From a virus (taxonomy: Duplodnaviria > Heunggongvirae > Uroviricota > Caudoviricetes), in IMG/VR virus record IMGVR_UViG_2547132277_000003: a stretch of DNA of 7,045 nucleotides. The stretch is one strand, 5' to 3'. The position numbers and the translations under genes are program-made. Below the pieces are notes generated by a model. It saw only the letters and a list, made by a program, of their open reading frames with translations. It did not search any database and was not told where the DNA came from. Position 1 is the first letter of the stretch, and each line of letters starts with the position of its first letter. Positions 2,779 to 6,614 of this stretch are shown here, one piece after another.

Positions 2779-3039
2779 ATGCAATCACCATTACGAAATG
2801 TGCGTAAGGCGCATGGTTTCACTTTGCAGCATGTTGCTGCGGGTGTTCAAGTCAATCCAGCGACGTTGAGTCGTATTGAGAGGCTGGAGCAGATTCCATC
2901 TATCGAGCTTGCAGAACGTTTAGCCAATTTTTTTAAGGGTGAAGTCAGCGAAATGCAGATTCTTTATCCGGCACGTTTTCAATCTAGCCAAAACCAGAAT
3001 GGGTTTAAACCACAGGAACAGGAGGTGAACCGTGGGTAA
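2779..3039 (+). CDS. Cro-like HTH transcriptional regulator (XRE family)
   Basis: 86 aa, divergent from the repressor, strong SD GGAGGG 3 nt... upstream of the ATG at 2779 (2771-2776). HTH segment GFTLQHVAAGVQVNPATLSRIERLEQ. Its 3' end overlaps the next gene by 8 bp. Confidence 0.8.
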   Translation: MQSPLRNVRKAHGFTLQHVAAGVQVNPATLSRIERLEQIPSIELAERLANFFKGEVSEMQILYPARFQSSQNQNGFKPQEQEVNRG

Positions 3040-3583
3040 GCATCACTGGAAAGTAGAAAAACAGCCTGAGTGGTACGTGAAAGCTGTCAGAAAAACTATC
3101 GCAGCGTTGCCGGGGGGGTACGCTGAAGCTGCTGACTGGCTGGATGTAACAGAGAACGCATTATTTAACCGCCTTCGTGCCGATGGCGATCAGATTTTCC
3201 CGCTGGGATGGGCAATGATTTTGCAACGTGCTGGTGGAACTCACTTCATTGCTGACGCTGTGGCGCAGTCTGCAAATGGCGTCTTTGTGTCTCTTCCTGA
3301 TGTCGAGGATGTGGACAACGCCGATATCAACCAACGCCTGCTGGAGGTCATTGAACAGATCGGCAGTTATTCAAAACAGATTCGTTCAGCAATCGAAGAC
3401 GGTGTAGTGGAACCGCATGAGAAAACTGCAATTAACGACGAGCTATATCTCTCAATTTCGAAGCTGCAGGAGCATGCAGCACTGGTCTACAAAATCTTTT
3501 GCATTTCAGAAAGTAATGACGCCCGCGAGTGTGCAGCTCCGGGCGCCGTGGCGTGTCGTGACTGTGGAGAAACTAACGCATGA
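3032..3583 (+). CDS. phage CII-like regulatory protein (CP76-type, ~183 aa)
   Basis: GTG start at 3032 preceded by AGGAGGT (3019-3025). Position immediately after cro and its size fit the enterobacterial prophage CII-like (CP76) family. The family call is from memory of that family and is not verified; the C-terminus has a Cys cluster [13 protein letters not shown]. Confidence 0.65.
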
Positions 3584-3918
3584 ACAGTTTAACAACACAC
3601 TACCGTCGCTCGCAACTGATTGCGCTTCCTGTACCGGGTGGAAAAGCGAAGGTGGAGTATTGCTATGCAGTAAATGTACCAGGTGACAGGGAAATTGTAA
3701 CCCACAGCTTTGCAGAGTGGGCTGTGGGTGATTTCAACCGGCAGAAGGAGACAGTCCTTTGCGACAAGTTAACCGCTGGTTCAAAGATCACTACGGAGTG
3801 CCCGTCAGAGTCATTCGTTGGGAACCGGAAACACAACGGGTTATCTACCTCCGCGAAGGCTATGAGCATGAGTGCTTCAGTCCGCTCGAACAGTTTCGTC
3901 GTAAATTCAGGGAAATAG
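3580..3918 (+). CDS. hypothetical protein (112 aa); frame is uncertain in its 3' half
   Basis: ATG at 3580 overlaps the CII-like stop (ATGA) and has GGAG 9-10 nt upstream. The N-terminal ~57 codons look protein-like, but the 3' half ([48 protein letters not shown]) is Ser/Thr-rich and reads like an out-of-frame translation. Confidence 0.3.
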
Positions 3919-3938
3919 AGGTCGGTCATGAGCACTAA
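3759..3938 (+). CDS. hypothetical small protein (59 aa, TTG start), alternative frame to the 3' half of 3580-3918
   Basis: Manual translation in the third frame: (M)[58 protein letters not shown]. Balanced, aromatic- and charge-rich composition. A perfect SD AAGGAG (3745-3750) lies 8 nt before TTG at 3759. Missed by the ORF track, probably because of its short length. Confidence 0.35.
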
Positions 3939-4869
3939 ATTAACCGGCTATGTATGGGATGGTTGCGCAGCGTCAGGCATGAAATTATCCAGCGTGGCAA
4001 TTATGGCCCGCCTGGCTGATTTCAGTAATGACGAAGGTGTGTGCTGGCCATCAATTGAAACCATTGCCCGTCAGATTGGCGCGGGGATGAGTACCGTCAG
4101 AACGGCTATCGCACGGCTGGAAGCAGAAGGCTGGTTAACGCGTAAGGCGCGTCGCCAGGGTAACCGCAATGCGTCGAATGTTTATCAGCTTAACGTTGCG
4201 AAGCTTCAGGCAGCGGCATTTTCTCAACTGTCAGATTCTGACCCGTCAAAATCTGACGCATCAAAATCTGACCCGTCAAAATTTGATGCGTCGAAATCTG
4301 GCAAAAAAGCGGGTTTTCACCCGTCAGAATCTGGCGGGGATCCGTCAGTAAAATCAAAACATGATCCGTCAGATAAAAAAACTTCTCGTCCGGACGCTTC
4401 GCAACCGGACACGCAGACGGCTGAACAGGAGTTTTTAACTCGCCATCCTGATGCGGTTGTATTCAGCCCTAAAAAGCGCCAGTGGGGAACGCAGGATGAT
4501 TTGACCTGCGCACAGTGGCTCTGGAAAAAAATCATCGCCCTGTACGAGCAGGCCGCCGAATGTGACGGCGAGGTGGTTCGTCCCAAAGAACCGAACTGGA
4601 CAGCCTGGGCAAACGAAATTCGCCTGATGTGTGTGCAGGATGGTCGTACTCATAAACAAATCTGCGAGATGTACAGCCGCGTCAGTCGCGATCCGTTCTG
4701 GTGCCGTAACGTGCTCAGCCCGTCGAAGCTGCGGGAAAAATGGGATGAGCTTTCCCTGCGCTTATCGCCGTCCGTCAGCACGTACACCGAAAAACGCGAA
4801 GACCCGTACTTCAAAGCCAGTTACGACAACGTGGACTACAGCCAGATCCCGGCAGGATTCAGGGGGTGA
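3928..4869 (+). CDS. phage replication initiation protein, O-like (N-terminal winged-HTH domain, iteron-encoded linker, C-terminal domain)
   Basis: 313 aa, SD GAGGT (3918-3922) 5 nt before the ATG. N-terminus VWDGCAASGMKLSSVAIMARLADFSNDEGVCWPSIETIARQIGAGMSTVRTAIARLEAEGWL resembles the HTH of prophage replication initiators. The central low-complexity linker (SDSDPSKSDASKSDPSKFDASKS...) is encoded by tandem DNA repeats, as in lambda O where the origin lies inside the gene. Confidence 0.8.
   Translation: MSTKLTGYVWDGCAASGMKLSSVAIMARLADFSNDEGVCWPSIETIARQIGAGMSTVRTAIARLEAEGWLTRKARRQGNRNASNVYQLNVAKLQAAAFSQLSDSDPSKSDASKSDPSKFDASKSGKKAGFHPSESGGDPSVKSKHDPSDKKTSRPDASQPDTQTAEQEFLTRHPDAVVFSPKKRQWGTQDDLTCAQWLWKKIIALYEQAAECDGEVVRPKEPNWTAWANEIRLMCVQDGRTHKQICEMYSRVSRDPFWCRNVLSPSKLREKWDELSLRLSPSVSTYTEKREDPYFKASYDNVDYSQIPAGFRG
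4228..4380. repeat. iteron-like tandem repeats (putative phage replication origin) inside the O-like gene
   Basis: Five contiguous 15-bp units at 4228-4302 (cTGTCAGATTCTGAC, CCGTCAAAATCTGAC, GCATCAAAATCTGAC, CCGTCAAAATTTGAT, GCGTCGAAATCTGGC), then further CCGTCAG-initiated copies at 4321, 4342 and 4366. Each unit has internal dyad symmetry (GTCAGA / TCTGAC). A moderately A-rich stretch (4343-4381) follows. Confidence 0.6.
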
Positions 4870-4871
4870 GC

Positions 4872-5360
4872 ATGAGTCTTTTGAATGACGTTCAGAAATT
4901 CATTGAAGCCCATCCGGGCTGTACTTCCGGAGATATTGCGGATGCTTTTGCCGGTTACTCACGGCAGCGCGTTCTGCAGTCAGCAAGCAAGTTACGTCAG
5001 AGTGGGCGTGTGGCTCACCGTTGTGAAGGAGATACACGCAGACATTTCCCGCGCCTGACTGAGAGAGCGCAGGAACCGGAACCACAACCAGTTCGTGAAA
5101 CCAGACCTGTGCGCAATTTCTATGTCGGCACTAACGATCCCCGTGTGATTTTGTGCCTGACCCGCCAGGCGGAAGAACTGGAGTCCAGGGGCTTATACCG
5201 TCGTGCTGCAACCGTGTGGATGGCGGCATTCCGTGAAAGCCACTCCCAGCCAGAACGAAACAATTTTCTGACGCGTCGTGAGCGGTGCTTACGGAAAAGC
5301 AGCAAGCGCGCTGCATCGGGTGAAGAGTGGTATCTGTCAGGGAATTACGTGGGGGCTTAA
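4872..5360 (+). CDS. PerC-family (Pch-like) transcriptional regulator with an N-terminal winged-helix-like extension
   Basis: ATG at 4872 preceded by AGGGGG (4861-4866); an alternative GTG at 4866 overlaps the upstream stop. The C-terminal half contains ...AEELESRGLYRRAATVWMAAF...RRERCLRK..., matching the signature I associate with PerC/Pch activators. Family call is from memory and not verified. Confidence 0.55.
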   Translation: MSLLNDVQKFIEAHPGCTSGDIADAFAGYSRQRVLQSASKLRQSGRVAHRCEGDTRRHFPRLTERAQEPEPQPVRETRPVRNFYVGTNDPRVILCLTRQAEELESRGLYRRAATVWMAAFRESHSQPERNNFLTRRERCLRKSSKRAASGEEWYLSGNYVGA

Positions 5361-6013
5361 TGAGTAATAAATATTGCCAGGCGCTGGTGGAACTGCGGAA
5401 CAAACCAGCCCATGAACTGAAGGAAGTGGGCGATCAGTGGCGCACGCCGGACAACATTTTCTGGGGAATTAACACCCTGTTTGGCCCGTTTGTTCTGGAT
5501 CTGTTCACTGACGGTGATAACGCCAAATGTGCCGCGTATTACACGGCGGAAGACAACGCGCTGGCGCATGACTGGTCAGAACGTCTTGCGGAGCTTAAAG
5601 GTGCTGCCTTTGGTAATCCCCCATACAGCCGCGCCAGTCAGCATGAGGGGCAATACATCACCGGCATGCGTTACATCATGAAACATGCCAGTGCCATGCG
5701 TGATAAGGGCGGGCGCTATGTTTTCCTGATCAAAGCTGCCACCAGCGAAGTGTGGTGGCCGGAAGATGCAGATCATATTGCTTTTATTCGCGGGCGTATT
5801 GGTTTTGAACTGCCTGTCTGGTTTATCCCGAAAGACGAGAAGCAGGTACCGACAGGAGCTTTTTTCGCTGGTGCTATTGCTGTTTTTGACAAGACCTGGA
5901 AGGGACCGGCAATCAGCTACATCGGGCGCGATGAACTTGAGGCATGTGGTGAGGCGTTTCTGGCGCAGGTTCGCCAGCAGGCGGAAAAACTGGTCAGGGA
6001 GATGGCGGCATGA
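5360..6013 (+). CDS. phage-type DNA N6-adenine methyltransferase (Dam family), orphan with no adjacent restriction gene
   Basis: Catalytic motif IV AAFGNPPYSR is present, with upstream DQWRTPDNIF and VLDLFTDGDNAKCAAYYTAEDNAL typical of phage Dam-type enzymes. Start chosen at ATG 5360 (TAATG overlap with the upstream stop); an in-frame GTG at 5327 is an alternative. Confidence 0.85.
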   Translation: MSNKYCQALVELRNKPAHELKEVGDQWRTPDNIFWGINTLFGPFVLDLFTDGDNAKCAAYYTAEDNALAHDWSERLAELKGAAFGNPPYSRASQHEGQYITGMRYIMKHASAMRDKGGRYVFLIKAATSEVWWPEDADHIAFIRGRIGFELPVWFIPKDEKQVPTGAFFAGAIAVFDKTWKGPAISYIGRDELEACGEAFLAQVRQQAEKLVREMAA

Positions 6014-6336
6014 CGACGTTAACTCAATGCCAGCAGCAGGTGCTGGATATGCTGATTTCTTATCAGAAAGAACGTGGCTTCCCGCCAACCAATCAGGAGG
6101 TGGCAACCATGCTGGGATACCGTTCGGTGAATGCAGCGGTGGAGCATCTTCGCGCACTGGAGAAAAAAGGCGTCATCACGATAAAGCGTGGCGTGGCCCG
6201 GGGGATAACGCTTCATACCGCGGTGAAGGACGACGACAGCGAGGCGGTCGGGATTATCCGCGCACTGCTTGCCGGTGAGGAAAACGCAAGGCTGCGTGCA
6301 ACCCACTGGTTACATGAGAGGGACCTGAAAGTATGA
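6010..6336 (+). CDS. LexA-like DNA-binding-domain-only protein (winged HTH, no S24 peptidase domain)
   Basis: 108 aa. LTQCQQQVLDMLISYQKERGFPPTNQEVATMLGYRSVNAAVEHLRALEKKGVITIKRGVARGITL parallels the LexA N-terminal domain (LTARQQEVFDLI...[36 protein letters not shown]...) but the protein ends about 35 residues later with no Ser/Lys dyad. ATGA overlap with the Dam stop. Confidence 0.75.
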   Translation: MTTLTQCQQQVLDMLISYQKERGFPPTNQEVATMLGYRSVNAAVEHLRALEKKGVITIKRGVARGITLHTAVKDDDSEAVGIIRALLAGEENARLRATHWLHERDLKV

Positions 6337-6614
6337 AGCTGATCCTGCCTTTTCCGCCCAGCGTGAACACGTACTGGCGACACCCCAACAAAGGGGCGTT
6401 TGCTGGTAAGAGCCTGATAAGCGCGGCGGGGCGAAAATTCCAGAGCGCGGCGTGCGCAGCAATAGTTGAGCAGTTACGTCGTCTGCCGAAACCAACGTCG
6501 GCACCTGCTTCAGTGGAGATCGTGTTGTTTCCTCCGGATAGACGGGATGGAAAACCGCCGCCATCGCCTGAACTGGGAAATGAGCCGGGACAGGTGTTTG
6601 CGGCTTGGCAGTAA
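6333..6614 (+). pseudogene. rusA: RusA-family Holliday-junction resolvase, C-terminally disrupted (catalytic Asp region missing)
   Basis: N-terminus MKLILPFPPSVNTYWRHPNKG matches the RusA signature (E. coli RusA LPWPPSNNRYYRHNRG). Similarity continues through ...VEIVLFPPDRR, but the expected RRDLDN...K...D catalytic segment is replaced by DGKPPPSPELGNEPGQVFAAWQ-stop. No alternative frame in 6538-6660 restores it. ATGA overlap with the upstream gene. Confidence 0.55.

Follow-up and report, generated by a model that had tools for sequence, protein, structure and literature searches.

An array of short palindromic repeats lies inside the O-like replication initiator gene of the 7,045-nucleotide stretch of viral DNA analysed here (the window; IMG/VR record IMGVR_UViG_2547132277_000003). 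Judged from its sequence, the array is very likely the initiator-binding part of a lambda-type vegetative replication origin located within the initiator gene, and all of the computational tests that were run favour a cis-acting DNA element linked to the initiator. The gene and its putative origin module have the following features:

3928-4869, + strand: O-like replication initiator gene, 313 residues; phrog_391 'replication initiation O-like' at 1.6e-135; 100% identical to gp41 of Shigella phage SfIV
3928-4221, + strand: N-terminal winged-helix DNA-binding domain (N-domain), residues 1-98; Pfam HTH_36 (PF13730) at 4.2e-11 and AlphaFold2 model
4230-4302: five 13-bp palindromic iterons with the consensus GTCARAWTCTGAC, starting at 4230, 4245, 4260, 4275, and 4290 in exact 15-bp steps
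4323-4335: 13-mer of an isolated sixth site, with the extended palindrome CCCGTCAGAATCTGGCGGG at 4320-4338; the most conserved block of the module
4339-4386: two 24-bp GATC-headed A-rich repeats, GATCCGTCAGTAAAATCAAAACAT and GATCCGTCAGATAAAAAAACTTCT, forming a direct repeat with the lowest GC content and the least stable 30-mer; candidate unwinding element
4387-4412: GC-rich right end of the conserved module, identified from the conservation profile and the direct repeat; recombination boundary
4420-4767, + strand: C-terminal domain (C-domain), residues 165-280, homologous to the C-domain of lambda and 434 O; BLASTP, tblastn, and AlphaFold2 (predicted local distance difference test, pLDDT, about 90)
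4840-4866, + strand: C-terminal tail SQIPAGFRG, the last nine codons, 8/9 identical to the C-terminus of E. coli DnaT

Iteron array and A-rich repeats

Five contiguous 15-bp repeats with internal dyad symmetry had been proposed in an original prediction made from the DNA letters, and both the repeats and their coordinates are borne out by Tandem Repeats Finder and by motif counts compared with shuffled sequences. Tandem Repeats Finder detects a period of 15 bp with 4.3 copies at 4237-4300, and the same array scores even better with a period of 30 bp and 2.1 copies. The 15-mer unit CCGTCARAATCTGAC, with at most three mismatches, matches the + strand at 4228, 4243, 4258, 4273, 4288, and 4321. 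The unit being palindromic, three further matches occur on the - strand, and the total of nine compares with 0.36 expected, a count reached by 0/200 shuffles. The dyad core GTCARAWTYTGAC, with at most two mismatches, has six matches (4230, 4245, 4260, 4275, 4290, and 4323) where 0.57 are expected, and again none of the 200 shuffles reaches this number. Written as a single site, the 13-mer is GTCAGAATCTGAC; the sixth site begins 33 bp beyond the start of the fifth iteron.

Three degenerate copies starting with CCGTCAG, which the prediction had also included, are found at 4321, 4342, and 4366, the latter two at the heads of the 24-bp repeats. The low-complexity linker peptide encoded by the region is as predicted, LSDSDPSKSDASKSDPSKFDASKSGKK. 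The repeats occupy the proposed span of 4228-4385; however, the conserved element is slightly larger and extends over about 4218-4410. The sixth site with its flank (4320-4341) has 82% identity to a 22-nucleotide stretch in the helix-turn-helix (HTH)-coding part of the gene (4067-4088, CCCGTCAGATTGGCGCGGGGAT). This likeness is probably due to chance, because synonymous sites of the stretch are unconserved among relatives.

Nucleotide comparison of the window segment 3900-4900 shows 99.5% identity to phage SfIV and 98.8% identity to phage SfII, and several E. coli phages are similarly close. In the complete SfIV genome, six of the eight matches to the iteron motif fall within the array, which is the sole cluster of the motif, and there is no second iteron-like tandem array. 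The only other tandem repeat of SfIV is a two-copy 20-bp unit, TGTATCTCGTGGGTACATTA, at 28455-28493 of the genome record (L087); it lies beside the repressor gene and is probably an operator.

The array is followed by the A-rich repeats. The moderately A-rich stretch of the original prediction is real, but its character is modest: the 40-bp segment 4340-4379 has 32.5% GC, which is the minimum of the gene, and the least stable 30-mer of the gene (4349-4378) has -34.1 kcal/mol compared with the window mean of -41.4 (standard deviation 3.4), a difference of about two standard deviations. The GATC sites at 4339-4342 and 4363-4366 are exactly 24 bp apart. For comparison, 80 genome loci with the same N-domain (52-100% identity) were assembled from across Enterobacterales, together with five phage loci. 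The density of GATC across the loci is 10.6 per kb in the origin part, compared with 1.8 per kb in the N-domain part and 2.8 per kb in the C-terminal part, and a GATC-GATC spacing of 24 bp is by far the commonest. In 44 of 75 loci, a Dam-like gene follows at a distance of no more than 2.5 kb. Methylation state matters for origin function at oriC and P1 oriR. By analogy, the A-rich repeats may be an unwinding element, the methylation state of which may matter, and the phage Dam may be the partner of the conserved pair of origin GATC sites.

Domain organization of the initiator protein

The AlphaFold2 model of the initiator, built on a 50-sequence alignment, contains two folded domains separated by residues 103-164, which have pLDDT values below 50 and are predicted to be disordered. 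The disordered segment corresponds exactly to the array and the A-rich part of the DNA. The N-domain is modelled with helices formed by residues 43-50 and 54-66, and a wing composed of strands 70-74 and 84-88; residues 54-66 are presumed to be the recognition helix. According to Foldseek, the N-domain resembles dimeric winged HTH regulators of the MarR and ArsR types, which bind palindromes. In a sequence search of the PDB and in Foldseek, the N-domain matched only generic winged HTH regulators, and the C-domain had no match.

The same N-domain and array are joined to three unrelated C-domains: the lambda-O-like domain found in the window, Phg_2220_C, which is present in the majority of loci, and the phiP27 type. 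The sharing of the N-domain and array through three C-domains is the behaviour expected if a binding domain and its sites must stay together. Proteins with the recognition helix sequence STVRT are encoded together with sites that have T at half-site position -5. The loci L083 and L085 (STVYG), L077 (STIRG), and L079 (STVIT) have mostly C at this position, forming CCAGAATCTGG-type sites. Co-variation of the recognition helix with the half-site flank is only suggestive, because it rests on about three lineages. Edno5 encodes a distant HTH_36 N-domain combined with the same lambda-O-like C-domain, and has a P gene downstream; 24-bp repeats with the palindrome ATCCCAAAATTGGGAT are located at the same position of its gene.

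Proposed origin function of the array

The features of the module suggest a mechanism of replication initiation. Rightward early transcription through the cro-like, cII/YmfL-like, DUF4222, and O-like genes would yield the initiator and traverse the origin. Dimers of the N-terminal winged-helix domain would bind each of the 13-bp palindromes GTCARAWTCTGAC, five of them at 15-bp steps and the sixth apart from them. The nucleoprotein complex formed in this way would destabilise the adjoining A-rich region with its two 24-bp GATC-headed repeats (4339-4386). The lambda-O-like C-domain and the C-terminal tail would recruit the host DnaB helicase without phage P or DnaC, since none is encoded. We infer the binding, unwinding, and firing of the origin, the route of helicase loading, and any role of Dam at both GATC sites.

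Several observations weigh against assigning the array to a lambda-type origin. The centre-to-centre spacing of 15 bp between the 13-bp sites is tighter than the 20-24 bp of lambda, so that adjacent dimers would face almost opposite sides of the helix and the complex may be built differently. The A-rich region is of limited length and only moderate instability, about two standard deviations above the window mean, with 2.5% of the 30-mers of the window being less stable. In the absence of an encoded helicase loader, the key step of lambda initiation has no known counterpart here. Arrays that bind initiators can also serve autoregulation or incompatibility. The co-variation of the recognition helix with the sites is drawn from about three lineages, and binding, unwinding, and origin activity are deduced from sequence for the whole initiator family. 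Finally, the prophage copy in the window may be defective or disrupted by an insertion sequence (IS), as indicated by a broken rusA followed by IS-like reading frames.

It is unlikely that the array binds the initiator without being an origin, functioning in autoregulation, as a transcriptional roadblock, or in titration for copy control or exclusion, while replication starts elsewhere or by recombination. Such roles would be in line with the weakness of the A-rich element and with the inhibition phenotype that lambda iterons carried on plasmids are known to give (PMC3349717). The related loader-less phage LLS has many Chi sites, and its growth is linked to host recombination by the authors of PMC12315714. 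However, the array is the sole one of its kind in the SfIV genome, and it is located at the same place as the origin of lambda and 434. The least stable stretch of the gene follows it and is taken in by the right boundary of the co-inherited module, and no other origin-like candidate was seen.

It is very improbable that the palindromes are bound by a protein other than the initiator, such as the DUF4222 product, the LexA-N-like protein, or a host factor. The DUF4222 gene is inherited along with the N-domain at 70 loci; however, the array itself is physically fused to the N-domain coding sequence and appears to co-vary with its recognition helix. Furthermore, a dimeric winged HTH domain suits a 13-bp palindrome, and the precedents of lambda, P22, and L all pair the N-domain with internal iterons (PMC8022706).

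Other elements that could be present in the region were sought. There is no sign of a DnaA-dependent origin: DnaA boxes are at chance level, with six one-mismatch matches in the window compared with 5.4 expected, and none in 3600-5000. A scan of the window with Rfam gave no match at gathering thresholds, and no known RNA element therefore explains the repeats. No promoter-like site was detected in a promoter scan of 3500-5000. A terminator-like hairpin on the - strand at 4323-4310 was dismissed as a chance occurrence, its left arm being unconserved in relatives. Matches in PLSDB are not informative on autonomous replication of the module; they are prophage regions, megaplasmids, and phage-like circular records, including examples from E. 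coli (16 kb) and Klebsiella (44 kb), and they do not single out the module as a sole replicon.

In the literature and records searched, no description of an origin in the SfIV/SfII-like family was found. An origin is not mentioned in the SfIV genome paper and is not annotated at this position in the two records inspected, that of phage SfIV and one of E. coli from RefSeq; a full-text literature search for the iteron sequence returned unrelated primer matches only. The analysis defines a likely origin and a 13-bp recognition site for a module found across Enterobacterales and in SfII and SfIV, which are serotype-converting phages of Shigella.

Selection on the DNA of the array

The palindromes occur in the same 15-bp register after codon 100 in nearly all of the loci (about 75 from Enterobacterales). 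Comparison of repeat number among relatives, which had been proposed as a check, showed that the number of copies changes by whole 15-bp units, corresponding to five residues, and ranges from about 4 to 9 across the loci, with about nine units in one Providencia locus. The sixth site is displaced in the same manner: it is located at gene position 381, 396, 411, or 426, in 15-bp steps between loci. Across 76 loci, the nucleotides are strongly conserved between 4218 and about 4410, beyond which conservation collapses.

Synonymous conservation was evaluated in 51 loci that align without gaps, as the frequency of the same codon given the same amino acid. The synonymous-codon identity is 0.452 at codons 1-95 of the N-domain, rises sharply at codon 99, and reaches 0.867 at codons 100-120. 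The six-fold-degenerate serine codons that form the arms of the palindromes have synonymous identities of 0.96-1.00. Codon usage was counted from every codon at linker positions 99-128 of 77 distinct genes, with no selection on the motif. Serine is encoded by TCA or TCT in 86% of cases in the linker, compared with 21% in the N-domain and 31% in the C-terminal part, and by AGC or AGT in 3% of cases in the linker, compared with 51% in the N-domain. Lysine is encoded by AAA in 96% of cases in the linker and 58% in the N-domain. The residues encoded at the centre and spacer of the repeats vary (K/E/D/N and P/A/T/L/G), while the bases stay RAW. The core CARAWTYTG has a density of 22.6 per kb in the linker, compared with 0.05 per kb in the remainder of the same genes. 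In phiP27 and in a Citrobacter relative (L076), one copy of the motif is in a different reading frame and encodes QNL. Because codon usage, synonymous identity, the density and frame of the motif, and predicted disorder agree, purifying selection is seen to act on the DNA, with the peptide as a tolerated by-product.

There is only a slight chance that the repeats matter solely as a peptide, a flexible linker rich in serine, aspartate, lysine, and proline, and that the similarity of the DNA was produced by slippage and gene conversion among the units. The low-complexity peptide is encoded in one constant frame in nearly all loci, and copy number changes in whole units, as slippage would give. 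However, concerted evolution within a locus cannot fix the same synonymous codons over 51 loci in which the synonymous sites of the N-domain are near saturation (0.45 compared with 0.87). The codon choice in the linker is extreme, the conserved pattern is a DNA palindrome that is meaningless at the peptide level, the encoded residues change at positions where the bases are held, an out-of-frame copy of the motif exists, and the linker is predicted to be disordered. Conservation imposed by an overlapping gene, either the open reading frame (ORF) 4190-4357 on the - strand or 4169-4351 on the + strand, is hardly credible: although the frame on the - strand has no stop throughout the region in 72 of 76 loci, this is a trivial result of a repeated palindromic unit that lacks a stop in that frame, the ORFs encode 55-60 residues with QNLT/QILT repeats, have lengths that follow the copy number, and match no family, and such a gene would leave the dyad symmetry and 15-bp register unexplained.

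Possible helicase recruitment and the DnaT-like tail

The original prediction stated that no P/DnaC-like helicase loader follows the initiator gene, and both the window and the SfIV annotation agree: no P-, DnaC-, or DnaB-like gene is found downstream of the O-like gene within the window, and the annotation of the whole 39.7-kb SfIV genome includes neither a loader nor a helicase. In addition, 67 of 75 related loci have no loader gene within 2.5 kb. Lambdoid phages designated 'O-only' exist, the replication of which is not understood (PMC12315714, 2025); 'O-only' modules, such as those of phages LLS and mEp460_4F5, are reported for 34 of 314 lambdoid phages of Enterobacterales (PMC12315714). 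The operon in the window resembles this class in having a single O homolog, which is its sole recognisable replication gene, and neither a helicase nor a loader. Phage mEp460_4F5 shares part of the O-like gene at 97% nucleotide identity. The accessible text of PMC12315714 does not define an origin or iterons for the 'O-only' class.

The O-like protein ends with DYSQIPAGFRG, and DnaT of E. coli K-12 ends with SEPDSQIPPGFRG (SQIPPGFRG), the shared peptide being at the extreme C-terminus of both proteins. The tail SQIPxGFRG, or a second type containing WNxIWKE, is present at all 67 loader-less loci among the 75, whichever C-domain precedes it. By contrast, seven of the eight loci with other tails have an adjoining DnaC- or P-like gene (Fisher p = 4e-9, not corrected for phylogeny). 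The loci L083 and L085, which are outside the 75-locus set, are exceptions that have the tail together with a DnaC-like gene.

The likeness to DnaT (primosomal protein I) consists of the nearly identical extreme C-terminal peptide, whereas the folded C-domain is lambda-O-like and not the three-helix bundle of DnaT. BLASTP aligns only the last nine residues with E. coli DnaT, and Pfam gives no DnaT match at E <= 1 for the C-terminal half, in which no DnaT three-helix-bundle domain that binds single-stranded DNA is present. The label 'primosomal protein' is given to the initiator in phage records because of the C-terminal peptide shared with DnaT. The complete DnaT C-domain occurs in many other phage initiators (Rac YdaU, SPN1S, phiV10, and epsilon15). 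The DnaT literature examined does not assign a partner to residues 154-179.

It is conceivable, if doubtful, that 'O-only' initiators load the host DnaB without a phage loader by imitating DnaT. The tail, SQIPxGFRG or WNxIWKE, would dock the origin complex onto the partner of the DnaT tail, for which DnaB-DnaC, PriA, and PriB are candidates, and the GATC pair would put origin firing under the control of Dam and SeqA. If true, this would give lambdoid phages a third way of recruiting a helicase, in addition to the P-type and DnaC/DnaB-type modules. A minimal origin fragment, one protein, and the DnaT-like tail provide a handle on how phages with a loader-less O homolog, as described in PMC12315714, replicate. 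Of the findings, the lack of a loader and the tail deserve further attention.

Genomic context and distribution

The window is from a very common SfIV/SfII-like lambdoid prophage, with a gene order of the lambdoid early region:

1989-2681, - strand: cI/LexA-type repressor gene
2779-3039: Cro-like gene
3032-3583: CII/YmfL-like gene
3759-3938, + strand: small DUF4222 gene, 59 residues; Pfam DUF4222 at 8.6e-19; annotated in RefSeq; overlaps the start of the O-like gene
4866-5360: PerC/YfdN-like gene
5327-6013, + strand: phage Dam methyltransferase gene; Pfam Dam at 1.1e-45
6010-6336: LexA-N-like gene
6333-6614: broken RusA-like ORF, the frame of which is lost after ..FPPDRR

A DUF4222 homolog (27-100% identity) is directly upstream of or abuts the initiator gene in 70 related loci. 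An ORF of 112 residues in another frame (3580-3918) overlaps the DUF4222 gene, and the SfIV record annotates that ORF (gp40) instead. Reading frames from about 6650 to the end of the window resemble the N-termini of IS transposases. In a near-identical E. coli copy, rusA has an internal stop.

The initiator protein family includes 2367 clusters at E <= 1e-10, most of which are named 'helix-turn-helix domain-containing protein'; this is also the only name of the O-like gene in RefSeq. A 401-bp segment containing the putative origin was detected in 39% of the complete E. coli genomes (2103 of 5426). Among the matches is the yfdO remnant of the cryptic K-12 prophage CPS-53, which aligns from window position 4161 onwards; it has kept the iteron array and the C-domain and has lost the DNA-binding N-domain.

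Comparison with known replication origins

BLASTP aligns the initiator with 434 O at 30% identity over 216 residues (E 7e-26), and tblastn aligns it with lambda at 34.9% identity (E 4e-18). The N-domains are not related in the same way. That of 434 O matches Phage_rep_O (PF04492) at 5.6e-36, whereas the window protein matches HTH_36 and not PF04492, and hhalign of the two N-domains gives a probability of 0.1%. The designation of the protein as O-like in the original prediction is correct for the C-domain, which is a true homolog of that of lambda O, but does not extend to the HTH_36 N-domain. The protein would function in the manner of O and shares its C-terminal half, but is of a different origin-binding specificity class.

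The proposed mirroring of the lambda arrangement, with the origin inside O, agrees with the position of the array at codons 101-136, which is comparable to that of the four annotated iterons in the 434 record (O codons 117-145, spaced 20, 24, and 23 bp). Shared with lambda and 434 are the placement of the putative origin within the initiator gene, in the part that connects the DNA-binding N-domain to the C-domain; iterons that combine dyad symmetry with an A-tract; an A/T-rich stretch on their right side; the location of the gene in the rightward early operon; and the exchange of the N-domain and iterons as one module. By contrast, lambda and 434 have four iterons of 18-19 bp at 20-24-bp steps, whereas those of the window are 13 bp long at 15-bp steps, five contiguous and one apart. 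The A-rich part is weaker here and carries two conserved GATC sites. Lambda has an AT-rich region, an inverted repeat, and O together with the P loader, whereas there is no P gene here. The sequence TCGTCAGAGAATTCTGGCGAATCC of lambda and 434 (L090 1555-1590), found on the right side of the AT-rich region, is similar to the sixth site of the window, CCGTCAGAATCTGGCGGGGATCC (4320-4342), and the peptides encoded there, SENSGE and SESGG, are also alike. The two sequences may be a shared ancestral origin element that is positioned on the other side of the A/T-rich part.

The initiator genes of the lambdoid phages lambda, P22, and L each contain their own iterons (PMC8022706). The module in the window is like gene 18 of P22 and L in having short, imprecise repeats inside the initiator gene that differ between specificity types (PMC8022706), with six 11-bp repeats in gene 18 of phage L. 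It differs from P22 and L in that these have a DnaB-type helicase (gene 12) beside the initiator, whereas neither a helicase nor a loader is encoded here. In Stx phages, the number of iterons varies, and extra iterons add residues to the linker of O (PMC7466680). The origins of the 933W type, with six lambda-type iterons, share the variable iteron number, which is about 4 to 9 here; however, both their iterons and their N-domain are of the lambda type, and they have a P protein. The 'P27' described in the study of Stx phages (PMC7466680) has lambda-type iterons and so has no bearing on the phiP27 record used here. Overall, iterons within the initiator gene are the textbook lambda layout, and the 13-bp palindromic iteron and its 15-bp phasing are this family's own.

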